Shown here: positions 10,279-39,515 of the stretch, in pieces | How positions within the stretch are numbered: the stretch's first letter is position 1 | Layout: each line of letters begins with the position of its first letter | Source of the DNA: Pseudomonadota bacterium | GTDB taxonomy: Bacteria; Myxococcota; JACRCW01; JAFGSX01 | Reading direction: 5' to 3' | DNA: 64,000 nucleotides | NCBI GenBank assembly: GCA_043821645.1 | Contig: JBDRCO010000081.1 | Location: forward strand, 32,484 to 96,483 | Translations under genes and position numbers: made by a program | Notes under the pieces: generated by a model | The model's database searches: none | Told to the model about the DNA's origin: nothing | What the model saw: only the letters and a program-made list of their open reading frames with translations

Positions 10279-13704
<3,426 letters not shown>

Positions 13705-13734
13705 GGCGGGGCGCTCCATCCGGGCCCATTTCTG

Positions 13735-13762
13735 ACAATAGCAGACAAATGTCTTATTTCAA
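13735..13762 (-). promoter_or_regulatory. Putative sigma70-type promoter of dnaE2 with a palindromic operator in the spacer
   Basis: Minus strand reads TTGAAA-N16-TATTGT with an extended TGn. The perfect inverted repeat AGACA-N2-TGTCT (13743-13754) lies between the hexamers. Confidence 0.6.
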
Positions 13763-13874
13763 GGATGGCGAGGTGGATCCGGAGTTGATCGGGGGTTCCC
13801 TTGCAGGTCGACCTGCGCCGTGGAGTACCCAACACTCCGTGTTTCCAATCGAGAAGCCGTTCGGCCTGACCAAG

Positions 13875-13961
13875 GCGCGGGACGTAGCGCGTCGCATCTT
13901 TTTTCGGGCAAGCCTGCGCAGCCCGAATAAAAGGTGCGACCGCAATCACTGGGGCCCGCGC
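13875..13961. repeat. 87-bp hairpin-forming dispersed repeat, copy 2
   Basis: Direct repeat of 9162-9248, with stem GTCGCATCTTTT/AAAAGGTGCGAC. Confidence 0.85.
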
Positions 13962-17286: not shown

Positions 17287-17372
17287 CCCGCTTCGAAAAC
17301 CTGACCCTCTTCGCCGCACGACGTACAATGAAGCGGGAACATCGCTGGCTGCTCCCGGTGGGGTGATTTTTT

Positions 17373-19475
<2,103 letters not shown>

Positions 19476-21270: not shown

Positions 21271-21274
<4 letters not shown>
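19628..21274 (+). CDS. Hypothetical multi-pass membrane protein with an N-terminal Zn-ribbon and two L7/L12-CTD-like motifs
   Basis: CVHC...CPVC, several hydrophobic helices, and motifs FVDRRQAEQLQRDLRRAGAQA and GISQAHALALAGDARSHGASA. Start uncertain (ORF is open from 19502). Confidence 0.6.
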
Positions 21275-23106
<1,832 letters not shown>

Positions 23107-23146
23107 CGGATCCCTTGGGCGCACGAGCTGGGGCCTCTCGCAGACC

Positions 23147-25590: not shown

Positions 25591-28447
25591 CTAGCGCGGC
25601 CGTGTCCCGCGGGGTCTCCTGCGATAGCCCAGCACCCCGAGCGCCAGCGCCAGGACCACGAGCGCGTCGGTCGAGCCCGCGCCCTGGGCGCAGGCGCAAC
25701 CCTGGCTGAGCACGATCGTGTTCTTGGGCGCGCTGACCCCGGCCTGGACCTCGACCTGGAAGCGCCGGGTCACCTCGAGCGGTGGGCTGCCATCGTCGGT
25801 GAGGGTCAGGGTGATCTCGTAGCTGCCTGGCTGGTCAAAGGTGTAGGCCGCGCTGGCAGTATCGAAGGTCTCCGAGGTCACGATGTCCAGGGCGATGTCC
25901 CAGAAGTAGGTCAGGTTGTCGCCGTCGGGGTCGCCGCAGCCGGTGGCGTCCAGCGCCACGCGCAAGGGAGCCGGGCCGCTTTGCGGGCCCACCAGCGCAG
26001 CCGAGGCATCCGGCGGATTGTTGTCGGTGACCGAGATGGTGAAGCTTCGGCTCTGCGGCCCCAGGGCCGGGGTGCCGTCGTCCTCCACCGTGAGCACGGC
26101 CTGGTACTGCCCATTGCCAGTGTAGACGTGGTCGAGCTGAAGCTGGCTCGAGGGCGCGCTGCTGTCGCCGAAGTCCCAGCTCAGGGTCAGGTTGTCGCTG
26201 TCCGGGTCGTACACTCCACTGGCATCGAAGCGGACCGTCAAGGGCGAGGGGCCGTACAGGGGGGAGACCGAGGCGGAGTCCAGCACCGGGGCCTGGTTGG
26301 TGTCCGTGGTCGCGGTGATGCGAGCCGTGCTGGTGCCACTGAGCGGGGGCGTGCCGTCATCGGTCACGGTCAGGGTCACGGTAAAACCACCGGCCGAGGA
26401 GTAGGTGTGGCTGGTGGTGGCGCCGCTGCCGTCGGCGCTGCTGTCGCCGAAGCTCCAGCTGTAGCTCAGGTTGTCACCGTCCGGGTCGGTGGACGAGCTG
26501 GCGTCGAGGCTCACCTGCAGGGGAGTCAGACCCGAGGTCGGGGTGGCGGTGAAGCTCGCGGTGGGCGCATGGTTCTGGCTGCCGGGATCGGTGACCGTGA
26601 TCTGCTGCGTCGCCGTGTCGTCGAGACCGCCCTGATCCACCACCCGCACCTGGATGTTGTGGTTCCCTGCGGCCAGGGCCGTGAAGCTGCGGATGCCGTC
26701 GGCCTCTTCGGCCTCGGCGGCACCGTCCAGGCTGTAGAAGTAGGTCGCGATATCGCCGGCGCCGTTGGGATCGGTGGAGCCCGTGGCATCGCAGCTCACG
26801 TCGAGAGGCGCGTCGCCCGAGGTGGGCGTGCAGGTCAGGTCCGCCACCGGCGCGTGCGGCGTCACGGGGATCGCGCAGGATACCTCGGCGGAGTAGATGC
26901 TGGCGTTCTGTGCGGCATCGACGGCGATGACCGCGACGTAGTAGGTCGCGCCCTCGTTCAGGCTGCTCAGGTTGAGGTAGATGCTCGAGGTGGACTGGGT
27001 GTGGTCGTAGTCGAAGCCCGCTTCACCCGGCCGGGTGGCCGAGCCGGGCCTGGCCGTGGTGCCCCAGTACACGCGATACTGGGTGACGGTCTCGTTGCCG
27101 CCGCCCACGTCCTGGGTCACCTGGCTCCAGTCGACGCGCGCAGCGCCACCGCTGCCTGGTGTACAGCTCACGCCAGTCGGCGCCCGGGGCGCCACGCTGT
27201 CGCTCGGCCCCTCGTAGAAGCTCACGGCGCCGACGTCGGCTGCCAGCGGCGCATAGCCGCGACGACTCCAGGCCACCAGGTCGAGCAGGTGGGCCGCGTA
27301 GAACGCCAGCCCGTTGCCGCCCTCATCGGGCTGGTCCCAGCGTGCGCGCGGCAGCAACTCGGCCTCGACCGCGGCGTCGTTGCCGTCGAGGATGGCCAGG
27401 GTGGTCGCGCAGGCCTCCTCGACCAGAGGATCGCCGTTGCTCAGCCCCCGCGGTGACGGCGGCGTGGTAGCTGGTGCGGTCCGCGGCGCTGCCGAACAGC
27501 AGCAGGGCTGCCTTGGCCACCAGCTGCTCGCTGGCCGAGCCGCTGCTGATGCGTCCTTCAAGAAAGCTGCGGGCCGTGGCGTCCTCACCCAGGTAGCCCA
27601 GCATCATCAGCGTGAAAAAGCGAAACGTGGTGTGGCTGTCGTCGACACCGCAGGCCAGACGCGTGCGAAATTCGGCGATCTGGGCCGGGCTCATCGAGCC
27701 CTTGCGCGCGGCCAGAAATTCGGCGCCCCACAGGTGCTGGTAGTCGTACTTGTTGTCGCCGCGCGTGCAGCTCGCCGGGCAGGTGGTGGTGGTCGTGTCA
27801 GGGCAGCGGGTGGTGATGGTGTCGCCCCCCGTGGCCCAGGAGCCACGACCCGCACAGTACCACTGCAGCAGATCGTTGAGGCCCGTGCTCGAGGTGCCGT
27901 AGTCCGCCTCCTGCGCCTGCCCCAGGTGGCGCGCCTGAAAGTGCGCTGCGCCCAGGCTGGGCGCCCTTTGCGGCGGAGCCAGGCCACCGCCCGCCAGCTT
28001 GACCATGACCGCCTGTCCGCTCTGGTAGGGATAGAGCCGGTCCTGGCTGCCCTCGCCAAAGCTCACGAAGAACTCGATGTCGGTGGCGGCCAGGGTACCG
28101 CTGCCACCCGAGCGCTCGACGGTCAGGGTGTGGCGCAGGCGCTCGCCGGGCATCAGGTAGTTGGCGACCTTGGGGGCCGAGCGCGAGATGTTGATGGTGA
28201 AGCCTGTGGCCTGGGCGCTGAGGTTGAAGTTGATCAGCGGATAGCCCATGTTGTTCTCGGCGCGCACCACCAAGGTGGTGGTGCCTGACGCCGGCACCTG
28301 CACCGAGTCGGCCTCGGGTCTGACCACGATGTTGTACGACGAGCCCCACAGATCATCGCACCAGTGCGCGGCGGCGCGCGGCGACCAGCACAGCGCACAC
28401 AGCACGGCGAGTGCGGGCACTGCCTGGCGGAACAACAGGCGAACCAT
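25591..28447 (-). pseudogene. ~950-aa secreted MYXO-CTERM surface protein (His1, Ig-like, helical region, FN3, 4x PKD) split by a +1 frameshift at a G5 run (27445-27449); may be a sequencing error
   Basis: ORFs 27323-28447 and 25591-27588 join as ...YHAAVTA-GLSNGDPLVEE... if one G is removed. Signal peptide, FN3 (YRVYWG...TYYVAVIAVD), four PKD repeats and tail GCACAQ...LALGVLGYRRR. Confidence 0.85.
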
Positions 28448-28520
28448 CTCGACCTCCCGTCGCGAACAAGTGTCGACAGTTTACCCTGTTCCAGGGGGCT
28501 TGCGAAGGCAGGGCGGGCTG

Positions 28521-29591
28521 ATGCGCAGAGCCGCCGGGATCGCGATGCAGGTCTTTGCGTGTGTGGCCTTTCACGCCGCGTGCGCGGATCCCGGCGCCAT
28601 CGACGCCCTGCCCCCAGCCCTCGAGGCTGCGCGGCAGGGCGATCTGTCCACCCTCGACGCCCTGCGCACGCGGGGCGACGGCGTGCGCGCGCGCGATGGC
28701 GTCGAACGCTCGGCCCTGCACTGGGCTGCGTGGAGCGGTCAGACAGAGGTCCTGCGCTGGCTGCTGGCGCAGGGACTCGACGTCGAGGCGCGGGCGCGCC
28801 TGGACCAGCGCCCCCTGCACCTGGCCGCCCTGGCTGGTCAGCTCGAGGCCGCGCGGGCCCTGCTCGACGCCGGGGCCGAGGTCGACGCTCGCAACCTGTA
28901 CCAGATGACGCCGCTGCACCTGACCGCCAGCGTCGAGGTGGCGCGCCTGCTGCTGGATCGCGGCGCGGACCTGCACGCCCTCGACCAGCGGCGCATGACC
29001 CCGCTGCACTACACGGTGAAGAAGGACCTGGCCAAGCTGCTCATCGATCGCGGCGCCAGCGTCATCGCCGTGGACGAGGCCGATACCACGCCAGAGCAGA
29101 TGACGGGCGTGGCGAGCTGCCAGCCGGGAGCGCTGCGCGTGTTTCCTCGACGTGACCGGGTGCGCCTGCGGGGCGACCAGGCCACGCTGCAGATCGTGGT
29201 GCTGAGCGTGGTGGCCGGCCCGCTTCGCGCGCTGCGTTTGGAGGCGCGTGCCGACGGCGTCGATGTCGACGTGCGTCCAGCGCAGATCGCTACCTTCGCG
29301 CCCACCCAGAGCACGCTGTTCGAGCTGCGCGTGCAGCGCCGCCCGGAGCTGCTGGTGGGTGAGATCCCGCTGCACCTGCGCTGGCTGGCCGAAGGCCGCG
29401 AGGTCGCCTCCTGCCTGCTCGAAGTGGACAGCCGGCCTGGCCCCACCCCCGAGGACCAGGGCCTGATCCGCGCCGGCACGCTTCCCATCCGCCAGCGCCC
29501 GGCCTGGCTGGCCTACGCCGTGCTCGGCCTGGCACCCCTGCTGCTGCTCGGCCTGTGGTGGGTCTTTGTGCGACGACGACGCCACAGCTGA
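28521..29591 (+). CDS. Exported ankyrin-repeat protein with an Ig-like domain and a C-terminal TM anchor
   Basis: SALHWAA, PLHLAA, TPLHL and TPLHY ankyrin repeats. C-terminal LLLLGLWWVFVRRRR. Confidence 0.85.
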   Translation: MRRAAGIAMQVFACVAFHAACADPGAIDALPPALEAARQGDLSTLDALRTRGDGVRARDGVERSALHWAAWSGQTEVLRWLLAQGLDVEARARLDQRPLHLAALAGQLEAARALLDAGAEVDARNLYQMTPLHLTASVEVARLLLDRGADLHALDQRRMTPLHYTVKKDLAKLLIDRGASVIAVDEADTTPEQMTGVASCQPGALRVFPRRDRVRLRGDQATLQIVVLSVVAGPLRALRLEARADGVDVDVRPAQIATFAPTQSTLFELRVQRRPELLVGEIPLHLRWLAEGREVASCLLEVDSRPGPTPEDQGLIRAGTLPIRQRPAWLAYAVLGLAPLLLLGLWWVFVRRRRHS

Positions 29592-29637
29592 ACGGCCAGC
29601 GATCGCGTTTATAGGCCGGACTCCGGTGCCAGGCCTT

Positions 29638-31071
29638 TTAGCCGAGACCCGCGCGCCGGACCCTGCCGCGCCTGGTGAGCCACAGGGCCAGGCCCGCCAC
29701 GAAGCCCAGGCTCAGCGGCAGGGAGAGCCAGAAGTGGGTGTTGGCCAGGCCTGGTGCGCCCTTGAGATCGACCAAACTGTCGACCGGAAGACCATAAAAC
29801 ACGCCACTGTAGGATCCGACAAAGGCGACATCGTGGGTGCCAAGGCGCCCGAGCACGGGGGCGGAACCGGCGCTGTCGTCGAGGCTCAGCACATCCCACA
29901 GCGGCCGGCCGGTGTAGGCCAGAAAGCGCAGCACACCGTCGCGGGCGGTGACGCCGTGCAGGTGGTGATCCCAGGCAGCGGTCACCAGCAAGCCCCCCGA
30001 GGCGTCGTCGAGAAAGGCCGCGCTTTCGAACAGGCCGGCGCGGGCACCGTAGCGCCACACGCGGCGGCCGTCTCGAGCATCCACCGCGTGCAAGGTGCGA
30101 TCGAGGGCACCGATGACGACGAGGGGACGGCCCTCCACCAGCGCCACCAGGGGTGCGCCCGCCACCCGCTCGGCAATCTTGTACTGCCAGCGCTCGGCCC
30201 CGTCGTCGAGTCGCACCCTTCGCAGCAGGCCGTAGGCCGAGGCGTAGAACAGCGCTGGCTCGCCCTCGATCAGCGCAAAAGCCGCACTGCCGCGAATGGC
30301 ATCGAGCTCGGTGTGCTGCCAGCGAATCTGGCCGCTCACCGCGTCGAGCAGCGAGAATTTTCCGTCGACACCGCCCACCGCCACCCGGCGCCCGTTGTTC
30401 GACGGGATGCACTGGGGCGCGCTCATGGCGCCGTCTCCCAGGGGTGTGCGCCAGCGCAGCGCGCCGCTGCGCGCGTCCAGGGCGAGCAGCCCGCTCTCCT
30501 GCTGACCCTGACCCAGGGAGCGGTCCCAGACCCAGTAGCTGACGACGAGAGTCGCCTCGCCGTCGGGCCCAGGACTGACACAGGGTGAGCCCAGGCGTGC
30601 GCCGCCAAAGGTGGGGCGCCAGGCCTCGACCGAGTGAATCCACTGGCGCTGGCCCAGGTTCGCGTCGAGGCCGTAGATCAGTCCATCGCTGCTGGCGACG
30701 TAGAGCCAGGTGCGCGCGCCGTCGCGCCACAGCACCGGCGTCGCGGTCACCCCACCGCCGGTGGTGAAGCGCCACTGCTCGACCCCGCTACGAGCGTCGA
30801 GCAGGTACAGGTTGTGATCGTAGCTACCCACGGCGAGCACGGCGCGACCGTCGACCACACCCAGGGCCGGCGATGACCACACGGTCATGCCTGGCTGGTA
30901 GCCCCACACCCGGCCGCTGGCCTCGAAGGTCCAGGCCAGGGGTACACCGGCGGCCGCCACCTCGAGCACGGCCGCCCCTGGGTTGTCGACGCCACCGCGG
31001 CTGCTGAGCCAGTCACCCCGCGCGGGCTCCGTGCGCGCGATCGGGCTGGTGAACAGCAGCCACATCAGCAT
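29638..31071 (-). CDS. PQQ-type (BamB-like) beta-propeller protein with a C-terminal TM anchor
   Basis: Repeated LDAxxGxxxW blades and SSP/GSYD motifs. C-terminal LSLGFVAGLALWLTRR. Start uncertain (31071-31110). Confidence 0.85.
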   Translation of the reverse strand: MLMWLLFTSPIARTEPARGDWLSSRGGVDNPGAAVLEVAAAGVPLAWTFEASGRVWGYQPGMTVWSSPALGVVDGRAVLAVGSYDHNLYLLDARSGVEQWRFTTGGGVTATPVLWRDGARTWLYVASSDGLIYGLDANLGQRQWIHSVEAWRPTFGGARLGSPCVSPGPDGEATLVVSYWVWDRSLGQGQQESGLLALDARSGALRWRTPLGDGAMSAPQCIPSNNGRRVAVGGVDGKFSLLDAVSGQIRWQHTELDAIRGSAAFALIEGEPALFYASAYGLLRRVRLDDGAERWQYKIAERVAGAPLVALVEGRPLVVIGALDRTLHAVDARDGRRVWRYGARAGLFESAAFLDDASGGLLVTAAWDHHLHGVTARDGVLRFLAYTGRPLWDVLSLDDSAGSAPVLGRLGTHDVAFVGSYSGVFYGLPVDSLVDLKGAPGLANTHFWLSLPLSLGFVAGLALWLTRRGRVRRAGLG

Positions 31072-32068
31072 CGGCGCGCGTGCGCCACACATCCTGCACC
31101 TCGAGCGCACTGCGCGGGCAATGGTCCACGCAGGCGTAACACATCTGGCAGAGTTCCGTCGTCACCACGCCTTTTTCGATGGCGGCCACGTCGCACACGC
31201 GGTCGCAGGTGGCGCAGCCGTCGCAGGCTGCGACCTGGTGCACCACGCGCAGGCGCGAGAAGCGATGCAGCACACCGCTGAGGTAACCCCAGGGACAGAG
31301 ATAGCGACAGAAGGAGCGGCTGACGAAGAGCGAGGCCACGGCGATGACCACCGTGCTGACCATGGACGCGGGGTCGCCGCGGGCGGTGAAGGCAAAGTGC
31401 ACCGGCGAGGTGATGCTCAGGTGCGAGGCCGCGGTGACGAAGATGGCGAGCAGGCTGAGCAGGCGCAGGGCGCGGGTGGGTCTGTCCTCGATGACCCCGA
31501 GCAGCACCAGCAAGCACAGCAGCAGCAGGCTGCCCGCCCAGTGCAGCGAGCTGTCCTCGACGAAGAGCTGTTGCCGCGCGCTCATCCACACCAGGCCGCC
31601 GAAGAACAGCGCGGTGACCAGGGCCAGGCCCGCGAGCTGGCCGCGGGTGGCCGGGCGACGGCCGTGCAGCAGGCGCGTGCGCAGCCCGGCCAGCAGCTCC
31701 TGGATGGTGCCGGTGGGGCAGATCCAGCCGCAGAACACCGGCCCCGCGAACACGGTGGTGGCGAGCACCACCACGGGCAGGGCCATCCAGTAAAACGACT
31801 CGGTGTAGGCGCTGCCGAGCAAGGTCAGCCCGTACAGGCCGTTGCGGATCATCCCGAACACGCCCAGGCAGGAGTAGACCACGTAGAAGAAGAACAAGAC
31901 GGAGACGCCCTGCACCACGTGCCGCACCAGCTGCCGCCGGCGGCGAATGCCCGCAATGGCCAGCACCGCCACGAACAGGAACAGGATGGAGGCCATCTCG
32001 ACGTTGGTCTCGTCGAGCGAGATGAAGGGAGTGTCGAACAGCTTGGTGATGGGGAGGCGCTCTGGCAC
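31013..32068 (-). CDS. NapH/MauN/NosR-type membrane 4Fe-4S ferredoxin-like protein
   Basis: FCGWICPTG and FCRYLCPWG motifs, about seven TM helices, CDGCATCDRVC and CQMCYACVDHCP. Confidence 0.88.
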   Translation of the reverse strand: MPERLPITKLFDTPFISLDETNVEMASILFLFVAVLAIAGIRRRRQLVRHVVQGVSVLFFFYVVYSCLGVFGMIRNGLYGLTLLGSAYTESFYWMALPVVVLATTVFAGPVFCGWICPTGTIQELLAGLRTRLLHGRRPATRGQLAGLALVTALFFGGLVWMSARQQLFVEDSSLHWAGSLLLLCLLVLLGVIEDRPTRALRLLSLLAIFVTAASHLSITSPVHFAFTARGDPASMVSTVVIAVASLFVSRSFCRYLCPWGYLSGVLHRFSRLRVVHQVAACDGCATCDRVCDVAAIEKGVVTTELCQMCYACVDHCPRSALEVQDVWRTRADADVAAVHQPDRAHGARAG

Positions 32069-32203
32069 CCGGGGAGTCTAGCGCACTTGTGGGCGCGGGA
32101 GGTCTGTTGTGAGCCCGCGCACACGGCGCGTGCAGGTCGCGCAGATCGTCCGTCGCGGCGGCTCGTTGACAGCTGCAGGAACGCGACAACCCTGGAGGAG
32201 AAC

Positions 32204-33331
32204 ATGAACGCCACCCTGCCCCGCGCCCTTGGCCTCGCTGCCCTGGCCGCGCTGCTCACCACCCCCGCCCTCGCCGACCGCACCGCCAGCCGACCCCAGG
32301 TCGAGGTGGTGTTCGTGCTCGATACCACCGGTTCCATGGGTGGCCTGATCGAGGCCGCCAAGCAAAAGATCTGGTCCGTGGTCAACGAGATCGCCGAGGG
32401 CAAGCCCAGCCCCGACATCAAGCTCGGCCTCATCGGCTACCGCGACAAGGGCGACGCCTACGTCACCACCCGCACCGACCTGAGCGGCGACCTCGACGCG
32501 GTGTACGAAAAGCTCATGGCCCTGGGCGCCGACGGCGGTGGCGACGGCCCCGAGCACGTCAACCAGGCCCTGGCCGAGGCCGTGCACAAGATGAGCTGGT
32601 CGCCCAGCCGCAAGACCCTCAAGGTCATCTACCTGGTCGGCGACGCACCCCCGCACATGGACTACCAAGACGACCAGAAGTACCCGGCGATCGCCCTGCA
32701 GGCGGTGCGCAAGGACCTCATCATCAACACCATACAGTGCGGGAGCTGGGACGAGACGCGGGTCTCCTTCACCGACATCGCGCACCGCAGCGAGGGCACC
32801 TTCATGGCCATCGCCCAGGACGGTGGCGCCGTGGCCGTGGCGACCCCCTACGATGGACGGCTGGCCGAGCTGGCGGGCAAGATGGACAGCACCTACCTGA
32901 CCTACGGCCGCGCCGAGGAGCAGGCTGCGCGCAAGGCCAAGCTCGTGCGCTCGGCCGAGGCCACGGTGGCAGCGGCGCCGGCTGCGGCGGCAGACCGCGC
33001 GACCTTCAAGGGCAGCGCGGGCGGCGGCTTCTTCGGCGGACGTGACCTCATCGCCGACGCCGAGACGGGAACCGTCAGCCTGGACAAGCTGGGTGACGAC
33101 GAGCTGCCCATGGAGCTGCGCGGCAAGGACAAGGCCACCCAGGCCACGCTGATCGCGCAGAAAAAGACCGAGCGCGCGCAGATCCAAAAAGAGATCGCCG
33201 CGCTGAGCAAGCAACGCGACGAGCACATCAAGAACGAGATGGCCAAGAAGGGCGGCGCCAAGGACGGCTTCGACGCCAAGGTGGTCGAGAGCCTTCGCGC
33301 CAAAGCCGCGACCAAGGGCATCACCTACTGA
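32204..33331 (+). CDS. Secreted von Willebrand factor A (VWA) domain protein
   Basis: GGAGGAG RBS, signal peptide, MIDAS DTTGSM, YRDKGD, GGGDGPE and GDAPPH. Confidence 0.9.
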   Translation: MNATLPRALGLAALAALLTTPALADRTASRPQVEVVFVLDTTGSMGGLIEAAKQKIWSVVNEIAEGKPSPDIKLGLIGYRDKGDAYVTTRTDLSGDLDAVYEKLMALGADGGGDGPEHVNQALAEAVHKMSWSPSRKTLKVIYLVGDAPPHMDYQDDQKYPAIALQAVRKDLIINTIQCGSWDETRVSFTDIAHRSEGTFMAIAQDGGAVAVATPYDGRLAELAGKMDSTYLTYGRAEEQAARKAKLVRSAEATVAAAPAAAADRATFKGSAGGGFFGGRDLIADAETGTVSLDKLGDDELPMELRGKDKATQATLIAQKKTERAQIQKEIAALSKQRDEHIKNEMAKKGGAKDGFDAKVVESLRAKAATKGITY

Positions 33332-33721: not shown

Positions 33722-34807
33722 ATGAAAGGCCAGCACGCGCTCTACCTCGCCGCGGACCTCGTGTTCCGCTCGCGGATACGACGGGTTATGCCCGCCCTGG
33801 CCATTTTTTTGACCGACCGCTGCAACGGCAAGTGCGTGGCCTGTCCCATTCACCAGACCGGGGGCACCCACCAGCTGTCGCTCGACCAGATCGTTCAGAT
33901 CCGCAAGGAAGCGTCTCGGCTTGGGACGATGATGGTCCTGCTCTCGGGTGGCGAGCCGCTGATGCACCCCGACATCCTCTCCATCATTAACGAGCTGGAG
34001 AACAAAGGAAGGATGCGGGTCAACCTGTCGACGAACGGCAGCTTGGTCAATGCCGAGATGGCCAGGCAGCTGGGCGCCGTCAACCTGACCTCCATCTGCG
34101 TCTCCGTCGAAAGCCCGTCCCGGGAGGTTCACGACGCTCTGCGCGGCATGGGGAGCCACGAGGAGGCCCTGCAGGCGGTGCGCTTGCTCCGCGAGCACGC
34201 TCCCGGCCTGAAAGTCAGCCTGGGAACGACGATCACCGCTCGAAGCCTGGGCACCCTGTCCAAGATGCCAGCCCTGGCGAGAGACCTCGGGGCACACGCC
34301 GTCCGGGTGCAGCTGGTGCGGGATGGCTTTGAACAGGAGGGGCTCGAACCCGAGATTTTCAACAAGCTGAAGATAGCTCCAGGCTCAGCCATGACGCTGC
34401 GCAGCGAGCTCGGCCAGCTGCTTGTGCAGGCAGATACCCACCACATCCGTACAGATTCCAAAGAGTATATGGATGATTTGTGCCGAGCGATCGAGGGCCA
34501 CCGACACATGACCTGCGTGGCGGGGGATTTGATCTGCAGCGTGACCGCCCGGGGGACGATCCGGCCCTGTCCCGCCTCCGATGTCGAGTTGCCTCTGCAA
34601 CACGGGCTGCAGGCGGCCTGGAACTCGAGCCGCTTTGTTGGGTTTCGGGGTTCGCGCGAACACCACACCTGTGCGCAGTCCTGCACCGACTCGACCTACC
34701 ACAACCTGAGCGCGGCACTGGAGCGCCTGCGACAGCTGCGCCTTCCATCCTTGATGAAGGACGTCTCCTATTACTCCCTGCAGCGCGGACCCTGGAGACG
34801 GTCTTGA
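33722..34807 (+). CDS. Radical SAM/SPASM-twitch domain protein
   Basis: CNGKCVAC, SGGEP and STNG. C-terminal CVAG...G.IRPC...C...C. Confidence 0.88.
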   Translation: MKGQHALYLAADLVFRSRIRRVMPALAIFLTDRCNGKCVACPIHQTGGTHQLSLDQIVQIRKEASRLGTMMVLLSGGEPLMHPDILSIINELENKGRMRVNLSTNGSLVNAEMARQLGAVNLTSICVSVESPSREVHDALRGMGSHEEALQAVRLLREHAPGLKVSLGTTITARSLGTLSKMPALARDLGAHAVRVQLVRDGFEQEGLEPEIFNKLKIAPGSAMTLRSELGQLLVQADTHHIRTDSKEYMDDLCRAIEGHRHMTCVAGDLICSVTARGTIRPCPASDVELPLQHGLQAAWNSSRFVGFRGSREHHTCAQSCTDSTYHNLSAALERLRQLRLPSLMKDVSYYSLQRGPWRRS

Positions 34808-35985
34808 TTCCTCGACGACGGGCGAGGACCTATCCAGGCCAGGTCCGTGCGCTGCTCAGCGGCCTCCTCTTCGGCAGCGGTGACGGCGTGGAGGGCTTTC
34901 AGGAAGCCCTGGCGCGCTATCTCGGCGTGCGTTTCGTCCTCCTGACCGCTTCGGGGCGACAGGCCCTGGATCTGTTGCTGGCGGAGTCGGGACTTGCCGC
35001 AGGGGCTCGCATCGTCTTTCCGGCACTGTCGTTGCGCGATTTGCTGGTTCGGGTTCAGTCGGCAGGCTACCGACCCGTCGTCGTCGATGTCGAGGAGAGG
35101 TCGCTCAACATCGCCCCCCAGGCCCTGGATGCCGTGGAGCACTGGGACGCCGTGGTGGCCACCCACCTGTTCGGCAATCCGTGCCGGCTGCCTGGGGTGC
35201 AGGCTGCCGCCAAGAAGCGCGGCGCCGTGCTGTTCGAGGACTGTGCGCACGCCCTGGGTGCTCGCTACGACGGTGCGCCGGTCGGCACTTTCGGCCTGGG
35301 CAGCATCTTCAGCTTTGAGGCCATCAAGAGCGTCAATACCTTTGGCGGCGGTTGCGTGGCCACCAACGATGCAGCGCTGGCCGCTCGGATCGAACACCGT
35401 TTGGCGTCCCTGCCGCTGGACCGGGCGGCGGTGGCGAAGAAGTGTGCCGTGAGCCTGGCCATGGACCTCTTGCTGCGAAGCCCGCTGTATCGCCCGCTCA
35501 CCATCCTGATGGGCTCTGAACTCGCCAAGCAGGCCCTGACCCGAGTCTACCTGTCCATGCGCGACGCCACGGTTCCAAGGCCGACGGCGTACCATCCGGC
35601 GCAGGCCACGGTCGGCGTGCAGCTGCTCAAGAGTCTGGACGCGATGAACCAGCGCTGCCGGCAACTGGCCGAGGCCTATCGTACCCAGCTCGGCGGCCGG
35701 CTCGCGGTGCAGCAGGAAGAGGACCTCGGGCAGAGCAACCGTTACATCATTTCTGCTCTCTGCGACGGTGACGCGCGGGACCTTCAGCGGGAACTGGCGC
35801 GTCGCGGCATCGACGTGGGGATAGGCGAGGAGCTGGTGGATGATTGCAGCGGCTTTGCGGGAGGTCCGCCCTGCCCGGTCGCTCAGGCAGCCGTGTCGCG
35901 GCTGGTGCAGTTGCCTGGCTACCACCAGATGACAGATCGCGATCTGCATCGCGTTGTGCGGGCCGTGGCTGGAGCGCTGGCCTGA
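34804..35985 (+). CDS. DegT/DnrJ/EryC1/StrS PLP-dependent sugar aminotransferase
   Basis: TTG start overlaps the previous stop (TTGA). SGRQAL, THLFGNP, EDCAHALG and FSFEAIK (PLP Lys). Confidence 0.88.
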   Translation: MIPRRRARTYPGQVRALLSGLLFGSGDGVEGFQEALARYLGVRFVLLTASGRQALDLLLAESGLAAGARIVFPALSLRDLLVRVQSAGYRPVVVDVEERSLNIAPQALDAVEHWDAVVATHLFGNPCRLPGVQAAAKKRGAVLFEDCAHALGARYDGAPVGTFGLGSIFSFEAIKSVNTFGGGCVATNDAALAARIEHRLASLPLDRAAVAKKCAVSLAMDLLLRSPLYRPLTILMGSELAKQALTRVYLSMRDATVPRPTAYHPAQATVGVQLLKSLDAMNQRCRQLAEAYRTQLGGRLAVQQEEDLGQSNRYIISALCDGDARDLQRELARRGIDVGIGEELVDDCSGFAGGPPCPVAQAAVSRLVQLPGYHQMTDRDLHRVVRAVAGALA

Positions 35986-36986
35986 TGTCCACCCACGCGC
36001 GCTCCTTTTCGATCATCATTCCGGCATACAACGCCTCAAGAACCCTAGGCAAGCTGCTCGAATCCATACAGCGCGAGTTCCCGGCGGACACCGAAGTCAT
36101 CGTCGTGGATGACCGCTCCACCGACGATACGGTGCAGGTCGTGCAGCGCTATCCTGGGGTGCAGCTGCTCGCCCTGGAGCACAATCGCGGCCCCGGCCAT
36201 GCGCGCAACCGCGGCGTGGCGGCATCGACAGGGGAGATCCTGATCTTCCTGGACGCGGATGTGGTGCTGTGCGCTGACTTTCGTGGCGCCTTGGTGGAGC
36301 AATGGGAGGGGACCCAGGATCCCAAGGCCCTGGTCGGCATGCTCGCCCTGCGGCCTGCCGACGAACATCGCTTCGCCCGCTACAAGGCCGCTCACATGTA
36401 TGGATACACCCTCTCCTTCATCCAGCAGACCGGCGGCACAGGTGCGAACTTCACCACCCAGTGTGGCATCATCGAGCGCGCACTCTTCGACCAGGTCGGC
36501 GGCTTCAGGGAAACGGCCGGGATCACGTGGATAGAGGATGATGAGTTTGGCTACCGACTCGGCGAGCACGCCACGATCAAACTCTGCCCGCAACTGGTGG
36601 TCGGGCACCATTTCGATCGCTTCGGGCCCTGCGTGAAAAAGATGTTCAAGCAGGCGCGGCTGTGGACCCACAACTTCCTGTTCGAGCGGCAGCGCTTTGA
36701 CAACATCGGCAAGACGCCTTCCGAGGCGCTTGGCATGCTGAGCGCGTCGGCCGCGGTGGCAGGAGCACTGTGCAGCGTGCTTTTTCTGGGGCATCCGCTG
36801 CCGGTCGCGGCGACACTGCTGGCCGTTTCGATCTTTGTTTTTTCGTCTCGGGGTTTGTTGTGGACCAGCCTGCGGGAGTACGGACCAGCCGCCTCTCTGT
36901 ATGCCCTGTGCGTGCATGGGTGTATTGGACTGGCGGTGACCTGCGGTGCGGCGTTCGGGTTGCTCCCTTTAGAGAAGTCGAGCTGA
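35985..36986 (+). CDS. Glycosyltransferase family 2 with C-terminal TM helices
   Basis: TGATG coupling. IIIPAYN, VVDDRSTD, ARNRG, FLDAD and IEDDEF. Confidence 0.9.
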   Translation: MSTHARSFSIIIPAYNASRTLGKLLESIQREFPADTEVIVVDDRSTDDTVQVVQRYPGVQLLALEHNRGPGHARNRGVAASTGEILIFLDADVVLCADFRGALVEQWEGTQDPKALVGMLALRPADEHRFARYKAAHMYGYTLSFIQQTGGTGANFTTQCGIIERALFDQVGGFRETAGITWIEDDEFGYRLGEHATIKLCPQLVVGHHFDRFGPCVKKMFKQARLWTHNFLFERQRFDNIGKTPSEALGMLSASAAVAGALCSVLFLGHPLPVAATLLAVSIFVFSSRGLLWTSLREYGPAASLYALCVHGCIGLAVTCGAAFGLLPLEKSS

Positions 36987-36989
36987 GTC

Positions 36990-38423
36990 TTGCGGGTTTT
37001 ACTCACCATACCGCCATGGGATCTTTCGAACACCAACTCAAGCATGAGCCTGAGCGTCGCCGGCACCACCATGCCGGGCGGCCTCGCCTACATGGCAGCC
37101 TCGTTGCGCCGCGCCGGGCACGATCCCGAGATCCTCGACGGCTACCTTGCGTCCGAGAACGAGATGATCGCCCGCTTGCGCAGCCGCAAGCACGAGATGC
37201 TGGCGATCTCCTGCGTCTGTGCCACGGCCGGCGCTGCGGCGCAGCTGGCCCAGCGGGCCCGACGCGAGCTGGGTGAGGGCCTGTTCATCGTCGCCGGTGG
37301 TCAGGGACCCTCGGGAATGGAGAAGAAGTTTTTCGAGCTGGCCCCCGCAGTGGACGCGGTCGTGGTTGGCGAAGGCGAAGAAGCCATCTGCGAGATTGCC
37401 AATCGCCTGGATCGTCCACAGACGATCGCCCAGGTGCCGGGCGTGCTCCACCAGCGGAATGGTGAAGTGATCGTCGGCCCGCCGCCGCGCCTGATCGCCG
37501 ATCTGGACTCCTTGCCGTTTCCGGCGCTGGATTTGCTGAATATTGCGGACTACGTCCCCTCTGCCTCCCACTATCGACGCCTCCCCGTGGCCACGGTGAC
37601 CAGCAGCCGCGGCTGCCCCAATTCCTGCATGTTTTGCTTCAAGATCTCGGGCAACACGATCCGCATGCGCTCGCCCGAGAACGTGGTGGCCGAAATACTG
37701 TTGGCGCACGAGCGCCATGGAGCACGGGAGATCATTTTCTGGGACGAGAACTTCACCCATGACCGGGGACGCGTCCTGGACATCTGCGAGCGCCTGCGGG
37801 CGGCCGGCAATCCGGTGGTCTGGTGGTGCGCGGGCCGGGTGGACGGCGTGGATCTGGAGCTGTTGCAAGCGATGCAGTCCGCCGGCTGCTGGCAGATCCT
37901 GTTTGGGGTGGAGTCGGGGAGCAACCGGATCCTGAACCTGATTGGAAAAAGCACCAACACCGACTTGATTCGCGGTGCCTTCGCCCTGGCCCGACGGGCC
38001 GGGATCAAGACCTATGCGACCTTCATCCTGGGCCACCCCACCGAGACCGTCGACGAGGCCATGCAATCGATAGATTTCGCCCTTGAGCTGGACCCCAACA
38101 TCGCGGAGTTCTTCCCGGCGACACCCTTTTATGGCACGGAGCTGGCGCGAAGAGCCGCCGCGTTCGGTGAGGTCAACGGCGGTCCCGAGAACCTGGGCAT
38201 GCACCTCGCGCCCTTTGTGCCTGCGACCATGACCCGGTCACAGCTCATGGAGCTGCGGCGTCGTGCCCATCGGACTTTTTACATGCGCCCTGCCTACGTC
38301 TTGAAGTATCTGCGCGGGATCCGGACCTGGGTGGAAGTCGCAGACATGTTCAAGGGCGCGGCCACACTACTGCGAGATCAGCTGCCCTCACGGGGCGAAC
38401 GTCCAAAACGCCCGGGGGATTGA
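36990..38423 (+). CDS. Cobalamin-binding (class B) radical SAM protein
   Basis: GLAYMAA, AGG, GEGEE, SSRGCPNSCMFC, FWDENF, GVESGS and FILGHP. Confidence 0.92.
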   Translation: MRVLLTIPPWDLSNTNSSMSLSVAGTTMPGGLAYMAASLRRAGHDPEILDGYLASENEMIARLRSRKHEMLAISCVCATAGAAAQLAQRARRELGEGLFIVAGGQGPSGMEKKFFELAPAVDAVVVGEGEEAICEIANRLDRPQTIAQVPGVLHQRNGEVIVGPPPRLIADLDSLPFPALDLLNIADYVPSASHYRRLPVATVTSSRGCPNSCMFCFKISGNTIRMRSPENVVAEILLAHERHGAREIIFWDENFTHDRGRVLDICERLRAAGNPVVWWCAGRVDGVDLELLQAMQSAGCWQILFGVESGSNRILNLIGKSTNTDLIRGAFALARRAGIKTYATFILGHPTETVDEAMQSIDFALELDPNIAEFFPATPFYGTELARRAAAFGEVNGGPENLGMHLAPFVPATMTRSQLMELRRRAHRTFYMRPAYVLKYLRGIRTWVEVADMFKGAATLLRDQLPSRGERPKRPGD

Positions 38424-39515
38424 ATGGCAGCATCGGTGGTCGCCGTGCTCCGTACCACCCCCAACACGGTGGTCGAGGACTACGCGCGGCTTCTCGACCT
38501 GGCCGGGTGCGGCGCCGCGCTGGATGAACAGCGGGGGGCCTTCGTCAAGGTCTGCCATTCTCACAACGACTTCTTCCCCTCTGCTGGTACCCCACCCTGG
38601 CAGCTGGATGGGGTGCTCGGCTGGCTGGGTCAACGCGGTCTTCGCCGCGACCAGATCGTCGTCGGGGAGAACCGGACCGTGAGCACCGAGCTGTCCAGGG
38701 TAAAAAAAAGTCACCGCTGGGCTCAGGTGGTGGCGCGCCACGGCGTGCGCTTCTTGGATCTGGATACCGCGGTGTGGGATGACCTCGAGGGGGCTTCGGA
38801 CGGCCTGGTCGCGGACTGGACTCCTTTCGGGGGGCCCGCGATGCCTCGCGAGGCCCGAGGCAAGACCCTCGTGCACCTGGCCCCCATGAAGGTCCACGGG
38901 CACAGCGTCGCCACCGGCAGCATGAAGAGCGCCTTCAACCTGTTGCTGCGGTACCGGACCTGTCACCGGGCGCATCGCCAGATACACGAGACCCTGGCTG
39001 ACATGCTCTATCTCCAGCACAGGGTGCTCGGGCAGGAGCTGATAGGTGTCATCGATGGCGTCTTTGGTGGCAACGGCAAGGGGCCGGTGACGCTCACTCC
39101 GGTGGAGAAGAACGTCATCCTGGCCAGCCGAGATCTGGTGGCCCTGGACGCCGTCGCCGTGTCGATGATGGGTTTCGAGCCACGCGCCGTTCCCTTTGTC
39201 TGGATGGCCCACCAGCGCGGCCTGGGCTGCGCGGACCTGTCTCGGATCTCGGTCGTGGGTGAGGATATTCGGGGAGTGTCCTTTGGTTTCAAATCCGAAC
39301 GGAACCTCGTCATCTACGTCGATCAGCTACTGCGCAGGAGGCTCGGCCCCGGGGCCCGACGGGTGATGCTGGACTCCCCCCTGGACCGGCTGGCGATCAC
39401 GGCGTCGCTGGTGTACCACAACGTCTACTGGGGTCGTCTGCTTGCTCCCCGCCGGATGAAGGGCTTTCATGAGAGTGGCTGGGCCCGATGCTGGGAAGGA
39501 TACGCTGCCCAGTAG
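38424..39515 (+). CDS. DUF362 domain protein (LarA-related)
   Basis: TTPNTVVEDY, FPSAGTPPWQL, MKVHG...TGSMK, GKGP and DLVALDAV. Confidence 0.8.
   Translation: MAASVVAVLRTTPNTVVEDYARLLDLAGCGAALDEQRGAFVKVCHSHNDFFPSAGTPPWQLDGVLGWLGQRGLRRDQIVVGENRTVSTELSRVKKSHRWAQVVARHGVRFLDLDTAVWDDLEGASDGLVADWTPFGGPAMPREARGKTLVHLAPMKVHGHSVATGSMKSAFNLLLRYRTCHRAHRQIHETLADMLYLQHRVLGQELIGVIDGVFGGNGKGPVTLTPVEKNVILASRDLVALDAVAVSMMGFEPRAVPFVWMAHQRGLGCADLSRISVVGEDIRGVSFGFKSERNLVIYVDQLLRRRLGPGARRVMLDSPLDRLAITASLVYHNVYWGRLLAPRRMKGFHESGWARCWEGYAAQ

Follow-up and report, generated by a model that had tools for sequence, protein, structure and literature searches.

The window analysed here is a 64,000-nucleotide stretch of a Myxococcota genome (contig JBDRCO010000081.1), and the subject of this study is a group of four adjacent genes located between positions 25591 and 32068. 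These genes are best read as the local copy of a conserved envelope module which is centred on a new family of exported proteins, here named HxC proteins. The family is marked by an invariant His and an invariant Cys at positions 1 and 3 of the predicted mature protein. The recurring core of its gene clusters consists of the HxC protein, a DUF6599 protein and a NapH-like Fe-S protein, to which WtpABC, a propeller and an ankyrin protein are added in the Myxococcota, and a DsbD_2 protein, a double-cubane-like reductase and an ATPase elsewhere. The predicted proteins suggest a pathway that might capture, import and reduce a thiophilic metal or metalloid species, a function which we hold to be possible at somewhat less than an even chance.

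Gene layout

The G+C content of the region is ~70% and the genuine frames were picked by their third-position G+C. The four genes are as follows.

28447..25591, minus strand: gene of the HxC (His-Trp-Cys) surface protein, in frames 28447..27323 and 27588..25591
28521..29591, plus strand: gene of an exported ankyrin-repeat protein (Ank, 84 bits, four stretches)
31110..29638, minus strand: gene of a BamB/PQQ_2-type beta-propeller protein (PF13360, 89.2 bits)
32068..31013, minus strand: gene of a NapH/MauN/CcoG-superfamily membrane Fe-S protein (two Fer4_5 stretches and Fer4)

A preliminary description of this DNA had placed four genes here, all with exported or membrane-anchored products and with no nap, nos, mau or cco genes nearby. 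All four genes are present at these positions, each product carries a signal peptide or transmembrane segments, and none of the nap, nos, mau or cco genes was found among the neighbours scanned at 17.3 to 39.5 kb. The ankyrin gene is divergent from the HxC gene over a gap of 73 bases and convergent with the propeller gene. The start of the propeller gene is more likely to be at 31071 or 31065 than at 31110, and the 3' end of the NapH-like gene overlaps this start. A long minus-strand open reading frame (ORF) over the ankyrin gene was rejected as an antisense artefact. No run containing the stretch was found among the public RNA runs searched.

The two frames of the HxC gene join at a single homopolymer, which falls within the segment encoding its HEAT/ARM-like domain.

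27445..27449, minus strand: run of five G with one surplus base, recognised from a homologue match and from the contigs of runs X1 and X2

Reading the run as four G (TAGLSNGDPLVEE) gives agreement with the homologue P0006. A Logan contig of run X1, which may be the source sample, has one base fewer at 27445 and is otherwise identical over the whole 1001-base stretch, and the same shortfall is seen in a 175-base contig from a separate study (run X2). Because the base is missing from both contigs, the apparent frameshift reflects either a rare variant or an error of assembly or of the homopolymer; it is not biological, or at least not fixed. Read-through of a four-letter codon (GGGG, GCGG or ACCG) was also considered and rejected, as it would shift 1-5 further places in the gene. 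The HxC gene is intact with 951 codons, and its close full-length homologues have 929-954 residues.

Conservation of the His-x-Cys terminus

A His at the predicted cleavage site had been noted in the window protein alone, and it was observed to be highly conserved in the family. A total of 88 homologues of the N-module were found among proteins of 582-2000 amino acids (aa), and those with a named source are all from Myxococcota metagenome-assembled genomes (MAGs) or metagenomes. The sequence A-x-A followed by H-W-C is invariant in 28/28 aligned sequences, and a small-x-small motif followed by HxC is present in 88/89 close homologues, where the sole exception (P0069) reads QWS. The family is rare, as a profile search of 1.84 billion representatives returned only 222 proteins at E <= 0.001. 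A distant branch with 25-30% identity, one member of which is from a Planctomycetota MAG, starts with A-x-A followed by H-[LFIM]-C-N-N-I-Y-R-T-P-D-R and carries explicit HEAT_2 repeats. His and Cys are both invariant in 17/17 members of this branch.

Altogether 230 unique family proteins were collected, 179 of which are recorded with their N-terminal region and 10 or more residues upstream. HxC was matched by a regular expression in 165 of these 179 proteins, and inspection placed it in 167 of the 173 that are N-terminally complete, including a branch with 27% identity. The 14 proteins missed by the expression comprise two with HxC on inspection, six accounted for by hits in fragments and six true exceptions (QWS, AWT, AWS, GFC, HWS and HWG). 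His and Cys are lost jointly in three of the six exceptions (QWS, AWT and AWS). In all 165 matched proteins the residue at position -1 is A, G, S, T or C, and cleavage between Ala and His would accordingly be predicted to leave His as residue 1. The identity of the residue at position 2 is variable, with W forming the dominant choice (132 proteins), followed by L (17), F (7), Y (5), I (3) and M (1). A second Cys at +5, giving HWCxC, occurs in 12/89 close homologues.

The preliminary description had also pointed to further His and Cys residues. Its cysteines stood, since Cys198, Cys215, Cys223 and Cys266 of the helical domain are invariant besides Cys30, but no further His was found to be conserved. 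The same four cysteines are retained in P0069, the QWS exception, from which we infer that they may form two disulfides and leave Cys30 free. Only five columns are invariant in 45 sequences when the 27%-identity branch from one family of the phylum (f4) is included, namely the His, the Cys, N64, P99 and A316 (numbering of the homologue L007). Other conserved residues of the N-domain include N65, D47, Y38 and Y139. About half of the family has no stalk and carries a low-complexity linker only, and the f4 proteins and some distant members have neither stalk nor sorting signal. An ESM Atlas search with an f4 HxC protein returned no match at 0.9 or above, and its structure matches had TM-scores of 0.31 or less.

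Gene linkage in the Myxococcota

One genome per species was scanned, which gave 52 HxC loci, all in Myxococcota-type MAGs, and the window proteins were searched against these loci with tblastn. The window genome itself has one copy of the HxC protein. The partners were distributed among the loci as follows.

Divergent ankyrin gene: 32/48 loci with at least 1400 nt upstream
NapH-like and propeller genes upstream on the same strand: 22/39 loci with at least 4600 nt upstream
All three partners: 21/39 loci with at least 4600 nt upstream
NapH-like or propeller gene anywhere in the locus: 24/39 loci with at least 4600 nt upstream
NapH-like and propeller genes, loci with at least 38% identity to the window protein: 21/28
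NapH-like and propeller genes, more distant paralogues: 1/11

The more distant paralogues are usually second copies, and the first copy in the same genome has the module. The four-gene block is kept between unrelated flanks when the window is compared with L007, L035 and L046. Co-occurrence of the four genes across Myxococcota genomes, which the preliminary description had raised, is thus seen in the 21 loci with all three partners, and co-occurrence of the HxC and NapH-like genes is also seen at the level of whole genomes. Among 401 evenly sampled genomes of the phylum, where related genomes are not independent of each other, the HxC protein (E <= 1e-10) was found in 12 and the NapH-like orthologue (E <= 1e-30) in 22, and all 12 of the former fall within the latter. 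The 12 HxC genomes are spread over seven families.

The other ten carriers of the NapH-like protein all belong to the f4 family. In two of the three f4 loci (L057 and L058) a divergent HxC gene is present, with 27% identity and predicted termini of AAA followed by HFC and ALA followed by HWC. Here the genes form a packed operon in the order HxC, a small DUF6599-like lipoprotein, WtpA, WtpB, WtpC, NapH-like and propeller. The third locus, L056, showed no HxC gene within the stretch retrieved, and encodes a large DUF6599 protein, WtpABC, the NapH-like protein and the propeller, and then a second NapH-like and an HGD-D protein. This last pair (L056 of genome G045, 11598-13891, plus strand; 28% identity for the second NapH-like protein) joins the Myxococcota cluster type and the operon type of the distant branch in one locus.

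Genes for a transporter were found further upstream. A WtpA-like substrate-binding protein, a WtpB-like permease with an N-terminal extension of ~170 residues and a WtpC-like ATPase are encoded upstream in 17/34 loci with at least 7600 nt, and in several loci a protein of 1000-1600 residues with a DUF6599 region precedes these genes. As an example, the WtpA-like protein of L010 scores 246.2 with TIGR03730, above the cut-off of 242.75, and 273 with NF003196, below the cut-off of 355. The WtpA-like copy of the window genome matches the Mo/W-binding protein of A. fulgidus (2ONK_E, E 4e-48), and the same genome has a second, better-scoring SBP_bac_11 protein elsewhere. The WtpB-like permease also matches sulfate/thiosulfate permeases (CysT, E 1e-39). 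The f4 operon, the group-A clusters and seven of nine distant loci all have DUF6599 beside a NapH-like gene, and DUF6599 matches were found in 0/14 control genomes. The large DUF6599 protein returned its own cluster alone in the ESM Atlas. The downstream genes (Crp, Alr, MlaEFD, YceD, PlsX, FabG and FabF) are housekeeping genes and are syntenic in 8-15 loci.

Three further observations concern these clusters. In paralogues with ~35% identity (L039-L052), which are second HxC copies in the same MAGs and are not accompanied by NapH-like and propeller genes, a gene of ~210-290 aa is often found directly downstream (cluster c11, no Pfam match) together with a Ser/Thr kinase gene upstream. In L055 of the window genome (contig C118, 344-6664, minus strand), a 2106-aa Rhs/Tc-type protein with SpvB, TcdB_mid/N, FG-GAP and RHS repeat domains is encoded directly after the WtpC-like gene, in the place that the NapH-like gene occupies in other genomes; this insertion may mark the break of an ancestral cluster. 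Contig C60 of the same genome (15021-15893, minus strand) contains two adjacent DUF6599 matches, one with an in-frame TGA, which could be another DUF6599 module.

Operons of the distant branch

A query from the distant branch recovered 39 metagenome loci. Nine of these have at least 4 kb downstream, two being identical from two samples, and in 9/9 the genes for HxC, DsbD_2, NapH-like and HGD-D proteins occur in this order on one strand. A DUF6599 protein is encoded between DsbD_2 and NapH-like in 7/9. Immediately upstream, a BcrAD/BadFG-type ATPase was found in 13 distant loci and a PQQ_2 propeller instead in four. The operon of this sister family reads activase ATPase, HxC, DsbD_2, DUF6599, NapH-like and double-cubane-like reductase. 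For the HGD-D protein, the nearest model is the double-cubane reductase NF040772 (274.8 bits, under the cut-off of 350), and the ATPase scores above the cut-off of the acyl-CoA dehydratase activase model TIGR00241 (235.6 bits against 125.4). The DsbD_2 proteins carry CxxxC in transmembrane segment 1 and SPCPP in transmembrane segment 4.

Domain anatomy of the HxC protein

The HxC protein of the window consists, in order, of a signal peptide, the mature His-Trp-Cys start, an Ig-like sandwich, a HEAT-like helical domain, an fn3 domain, four PKD domains and a MYXO-CTERM signal. All features lie on the minus strand.

28367..28447, minus strand: signal peptide of 27 residues with a predicted site after Ala-Ala-Ala (sequence, -3/-1 rule)
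28358..28366, minus strand: codons of the predicted mature N-terminus His28-Trp29-Cys30 (family invariance)
27998..28357, minus strand: Ig-like beta-sandwich, about residues 31-150 (AlphaFold model m7bf71e89dda0, pLDDT 84.5)
27229..27955, minus strand: HEAT/ARM-like helical repeat domain with Cys198, Cys215, Cys223 and Cys266 (model of P0039)
26908..27183, minus strand: fibronectin type III (fn3) domain (PF00041, 26.1 bits against a cut-off of 25)
25699..26856, minus strand, approximate: four PKD domains forming the stalk (PF18911 PKD_4, 167.7 bits, four stretches)
25594..25701, minus strand: MYXO-CTERM signal with a GCACA signature, a transmembrane helix and an Arg-rich tail (TIGR03901, 21.2 bits against 20)

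The signal peptide and the mature start read MVRLLFRQAVPALAVLCALCWSPRAAA followed by HWC, with Ala at both -3 and -1. The stalk of fn3 and four PKD domains with a MYXO-CTERM tail, as first described, scored above the cut-offs, and a second MYXO-CTERM model (TIGR03382) gave 19.1 bits against a cut-off of 15.85. Proteins with the MYXO-CTERM tag are reported to be lipidated, cleaved by myxosortase and displayed at the cell surface (PMC11980579). The first ~470 residues have no match in Pfam or NCBIfam, and comparison of the family with Pfam, NCBIfam and the PDB gave no sequence similarity outside the HEAT repeats.

The Ig-like domain that had been proposed to follow the mature N-terminus was seen in two AlphaFold models, directly behind HWC. 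In the model of the short-form homologue P0039, pLDDT is >90 over residues 30-420, where an Ig-like sandwich is followed by helical repeats. The model of the window N-domain (residues 28-160, 133 residues) is also a sandwich with pLDDT of 84.5, and the first 10 residues have pLDDT of only 53, which suggests that the mature N-terminal arm is flexible. Fold matches of the N-domain, from an exhaustive VIA-align comparison, are tied and generic (best Z 6.5; ScsB N-domain 6.4, PmoB 5.2 and YcnI 5.1), and the modelled fold neither supports nor excludes kinship with the His-brace proteins. The helical part likewise gave generic matches to HEAT/ARM proteins (best Z 9.6; YibA 8.2 and CpcE/F 7.2), and profile A4 of this domain matches alphaRep HEAT repeats with E 7.7e-8. 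A Foldseek search of the whole module against the PDB returned nothing at E <= 0.001, the best match being ERAP1 domains III-IV (E 1.8e-3, TM-score ~0.2). Weak Foldseek matches had pointed to a thioester or alpha-2-macroglobulin-like protein, for which a CxEQ motif is characteristic. The idea was dropped, as the helical domain has a HEAT-like form rather than that of an alpha/alpha toroid, and no CxEQ was seen. Prediction of a complex between the ankyrin protein (L007, residues 21-328) and the HxC N-module (L007, residues 27-445) scored 0.00 against a mark of 0.32 in a run without controls, and is uninformative.

Partner proteins

The NapH-like protein contains two CX3CP motifs and two four-Cys ferredoxin motifs (C113/C117, C254/C258, C282-292 and C307-317), and all 12 cysteines are kept in 26 orthologues. 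It had been described as a NapH-like 4Fe-4S protein, which stands as far as the superfamily goes: PF12801 (Fer4_5) matches in two stretches with 64.4 bits, placing the protein within the Fer4_5 superfamily, but membership of the NapH and MauN families does not hold, as the scores fall below the curated cut-offs (TIGR02163 64.2 against 213.05; PRK09477 NapH 64 against 234). The scores are also low for NosR (40 against 1000) and CcoG/FixG (TIGR02745, 15.2 against 316.7), and Pfam gave no match to FixG_C or to the FMN-binding domain of NosR. By these comparisons the protein represents a separate branch of the NapH/MauN/NosR/CcoG superfamily. The Fe-S domains of E. coli NapH and CcoG face the cytoplasm, and by analogy that of the NapH-like protein would do the same.

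The propeller has a C-terminal transmembrane helix with an Arg-rich tail. Its description as a PQQ-type propeller was right about the fold (PF13360), but the protein falls short of the cut-offs for PQQ-dehydrogenase (TIGR03075, 42 against 480) and BamB (TIGR03300, 87.7 bits against 285.2). PF01011 reaches 28.9 with no single stretch passing. In addition, the anchor is at the C-terminus instead of a lipobox, and the 28 orthologues keep the repeat tryptophans and have no conserved His or Cys. The propeller is taken to be a probable scaffold. In the ankyrin protein, the signal peptide and the transmembrane segment with its RRR tail are kept in the family, and otherwise little is conserved beyond the repeat consensus.

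A possible capture, import and reduction pathway

From the predicted proteins we infer metal binding, a direction of flow and a class of substrate. A thiophilic metal or metalloid would be bound at a site made up of the free amine and imidazole of His1 and the Cys3 thiolate. A conserved N-terminal His behind a signal peptide is reported to predict a metalloprotein, with examples (PMC12537917), and metal binding by His1 and Cys3 is proposed on the basis of this rule and of the fact that three of the six exceptions have lost both His and Cys. In the window organism the site would be displayed outward on the fn3/PKD stalk with its MYXO-CTERM lipid anchor. The captured species might then be passed inward, in the Myxococcota through the WtpABC-type importer with the DUF6599 protein, and in the sister family of the distant branch through the Cys-bearing DsbD_2 membrane protein. 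A comparable arrangement is described for the beta-sandwich anglerases, which feed metal to a fused permease (PMC12537917). The NapH/CcoG-like Fe-S protein would do the redox work at the membrane, where it might reduce the ligand or a product of it, and in the sister family the double-cubane-like reductase and the ATPase would join in this reduction. The membrane-anchored propeller and the ankyrin protein may be non-catalytic scaffolds or holding factors. Two precedents underlie the proposed role of the NapH-like protein. CcoG, a member of the Fer4_5 superfamily, is reported to be a cupric reductase, which sets a precedent for such a protein to reduce a metal ion (Cu2+) rather than feed a respiratory enzyme. 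The other precedent is the logic of the SAO model, in which capture is followed by ABC import and by cytoplasmic reduction by a double-cubane protein (10.1101/2022.07.06.499078).

A number of points weigh against this proposal. WtpA-type proteins bind oxyanions through oxygen ligands, which does not obviously fit a hand-over from a His/Cys site. The surface-anchored form of the HxC protein is far from the inner membrane, and the membrane side of the Fe-S clusters is assumed from E. coli NapH. The metal-binding site is itself a prediction, signal cleavage was judged solely from the -3/-1 rule, and no second conserved His was found in alignments of 28, 89 and 45 sequences, in which H28 is the only invariant or near-invariant His. 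The modelled Ig-like fold is generic, as the matches to YcnI (Z 5.1) and PmoB (5.2) are no better than those to dozens of unrelated Ig domains. With respect to linkage, 17/39 loci, mostly second paralogues, have no NapH-like and propeller genes upstream on the same strand. The genes for the DUF6599 protein and WtpABC are on a different contig of the window genome, so that co-transcription is not required. Finally, part of the synteny is inheritance among related MAGs, since these also share the downstream housekeeping genes.

The same evidence could be taken further. HxC proteins would then represent a new class of extracytoplasmic metalloprotein, a 'His-Cys hook', at the capture end of an unrecognised trans-envelope pathway which would import a thiophilic metal or metalloid species and reduce it at very low potential. 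Such a pathway would be spread over the Myxococcota, the Planctomycetota and unassigned lineages, and would employ NapH-like reduction and, in some, an ATP-driven double-cubane reductase. We regard this wider claim as doubtful.

Alternative explanations

Cys3 might instead be a covalent carrier or a redox thiol on a swinging arm, with His1 tuning the thiol, so that the HxC protein would carry sulfur, selenium or an organic adduct, or would accept reducing equivalents from the DsbD_2 or NapH-like protein in the periplasm. The Cys arm of SoxY on an Ig-like fold and the Ig-like N-domain of DsbD/ScsB are analogues of such an arrangement. In the distant branch the HxC gene is immediately followed by a gene for a CcdA/DsbD-type protein with conserved transmembrane cysteines, but no DsbD_2 gene adjoins the Myxococcota clusters. 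The N-domain of ScsB ranks in the top three of the fold matches (Z 6.4, root-mean-square deviation 3.0, 91 residues aligned), although it is tied with unrelated Ig domains. The likeness of the WtpB-like permease to CysT and the low model confidence of the N-terminal arm, which suggests flexibility, are both consistent with a carrier. So is the HWCxC form seen in some close homologues, but most members have a single N-terminal Cys which would be unable to cycle as a disulfide alone. Furthermore, a His exactly at the mature N-terminus fits chelation by a free amine (PMC12537917) and is unneeded for a thiol carrier, and we consider this explanation to be unlikely. It is improbable that Cys3 attaches a cofactor through a thioether with His1 as an axial ligand, in which case the HxC protein would act outside the cytoplasm as a redox enzyme or electron carrier fed by the NapH-like protein, on the model of single-Cys haem attachment or of bilin attachment by HEAT-repeat lyases. 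This corresponds to the 'surface metalloenzyme' of the preliminary description. The HEAT-like domain does resemble PBS-lyase-type repeats (CpcE/F, Z 7.2), with HEAT_2 repeats in the distant branch, but its matches are generic, with Z <10 where helical repeats often reach 13 by chance. The constant linkage to a membrane Fe-S protein points in the same direction, as do the DsbD_2/CcdA proteins, which by their family description keep cysteines reduced for cytochrome c maturation. However, the motif is H-x-C instead of CxxCH or xxxCH, the clusters showed no genes for a haem lyase or for cytochrome c maturation, and an outer-surface MYXO-CTERM protein lies far from an electron donor in the inner membrane. 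In addition, the electron supply to a surface enzyme that had been proposed earlier was not supported, as the neighbouring genes that were examined included no recognised periplasmic partner of the NapG type. A Trp-derived quinone (cysteine tryptophylquinone, CTQ, or tryptophan tryptophylquinone, TTQ), suggested by W29, C30, W34 and the likeness to MauN, was rejected because position 2 is variable and the Trp at +7 is lost in the distant branch.

The protein could also be an ordinary adhesin, that is, a PKD/fn3 MYXO-CTERM surface protein which has its neighbours through shared ancestry and in which HxC is structural. A stalk of fn3 and four PKD domains with an anchor is typical of myxobacterial surface proteins (PMC11980579), the synteny of the downstream housekeeping genes would agree with shared ancestry, and the replacement of the stalk by a low-complexity linker in about half of the family has been counted on the same side. 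Against this, the linkage to the NapH-like gene was observed in three gene orders and in the ~25-30%-identity branch of other phyla, the block is intact in the window though both its flanks differ, His and Cys are among just five invariant columns in 45 sequences, and the f4 proteins and some distant members are without stalk or sorting signal. The linkage in the f4 and distant branches has already weakened the adhesin explanation, to which we give a low probability. The remaining weight falls to an explanation outside those listed here.

Relation to known systems

The HxC proteins share several properties with the His-brace and mono-His-brace proteins (LPMO, CopC, PmoB and YcnI), as they are exported, have a predicted His1 and contain a beta-sandwich, which is Ig-like or cupredoxin-like. 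YcnI and CopC also work with a membrane transporter. However, a canonical copper His brace, of which the preliminary description had seen the hallmark in the N-terminal His, is not supported, because there is no second conserved His and the invariant partner is the Cys at +3; the large HEAT-like domain is a further difference. YcnI (7me6_A) aligns with the HxC N-domain at Z 5.1 and a root-mean-square deviation of 3.4 over 97 residues, at rank 45 among generic Ig-like matches, and there is no Pfam match. The Ni-hook of NiSOD has the sequence His-Cys-x-x-Pro-Cys, with cysteines at +2 and +6, in a helical bundle. HxC proteins fall outside its definition, with His-x-Cys, a hydrophobic residue at position 2 and a beta-sandwich. 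The NapH-like protein is polytopic and shares the CX3CP and ferredoxin motifs with NapH, MauN, NosR and CcoG, but it scores far below every curated cut-off. In the Mer system (MerP-MerT-MerA), as in the pathway proposed here, capture by periplasmic cysteines is followed by a membrane conduit and cytoplasmic reduction.

The anglerases (Ang-1 and Ang-2) have been described as beta-sandwich proteins in which an N-terminal His is proposed to fish metal for a membrane permease (PMC12537917), and the HxC proteins are like them in this respect. According to that account, anglerases are fused to HupE/UreJ-2 permeases, whereas HxC proteins are separate, carry a HEAT domain and a Cys at +3, and are linked to the NapH-like and DUF6599 proteins and to an ABC importer or DsbD_2. 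The main text of PMC12537917 has no mention of Myxococc, NapH or DUF6599, and its supplements could list the family. The operon of the distant branch resembles SAO, as proposed in 10.1101/2022.07.06.499078, in that it encodes a double-cubane-like reductase, here with its ATPase. No homology to SAO or Mer was found beyond a generic ABC ATPase (SaoA 155 bits against 360), and no selenocysteine was seen.

A literature search, mostly outside subscription journals, found no description of the HxC family, of the gene set or of DUF6599. No family model or solved relative was found in Pfam, NCBIfam or the PDB, and the parts of the module are individually of known kinds. The idea of an N-terminal-His metal site which feeds a transporter is already in print (PMC12537917).

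Surrounding genes

Other genes of the window were examined alongside the module. An exported VWA-domain protein (32201-33331, plus strand) is divergent from the NapH-like gene and stands beside the module in 0/52 loci; its frame continues upstream antisense to the NapH-like gene, which produces a spurious 782-aa ORF (30983-33331). It is followed by a run of lower G+C content (33722-39515, plus strand; 0.62-0.67 against ~0.70 around it) with genes for a radical SAM/SPASM protein, a DegT-type aminotransferase, a GT2 glycosyltransferase, a B12-binding radical SAM protein and a DUF362 protein. This run resembles a sugar or glycan modification island and was possibly acquired. The DUF362 gene (38424-39515) was considered as a Tat-exported client and rejected, as a twin-arginine leader is absent.

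On the other side, a long-coiled-coil response regulator (25447-23723) and a 182-aa ORF are followed by a sigma-54 activator (21271-23124, minus strand) which carries an unusual LMWPc (low-molecular-weight phosphatase/ArsC-like) domain at its N-terminus as well as a PAS domain. All three were rejected as module members, since they were found in 0 (response regulator), 0 (182-aa ORF) and 3 (activator, non-adjacent) of 52 loci. Furthermore, a Ser/Thr protein kinase is fused to a phosphonate-type periplasmic binding domain (Pkinase and Phosphonate-bd; 17367-19475, plus strand), and the end of the window cuts off an open frame (57401-64000, plus strand) which has coding-type G+C and spans at least 2200 codons.

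Implications

With these observations, a protein family that has no Pfam or NCBIfam model would gain a testable candidate active site of two residues and a defined set of partners. If His1 and Cys3 bind metal, a His/Cys version would join the His brace, the mono-His brace, the Ni-hook and the anglerases. To our knowledge, no physiological role has been assigned in such clusters to the NapH-like branch, the DUF6599 proteins or the double-cubane-type reductases, and the proposed pathway would tie all three to one extracytoplasmic task. Were the 'His-Cys hook' to prove true, it would provide a first function for the DUF6599 proteins and for an orphan branch of the NapH superfamily. The hosts are uncultured Myxococcota of soil, fen and groundwater, where the acquisition of trace metals or metalloids is the likely ecological setting of the module.

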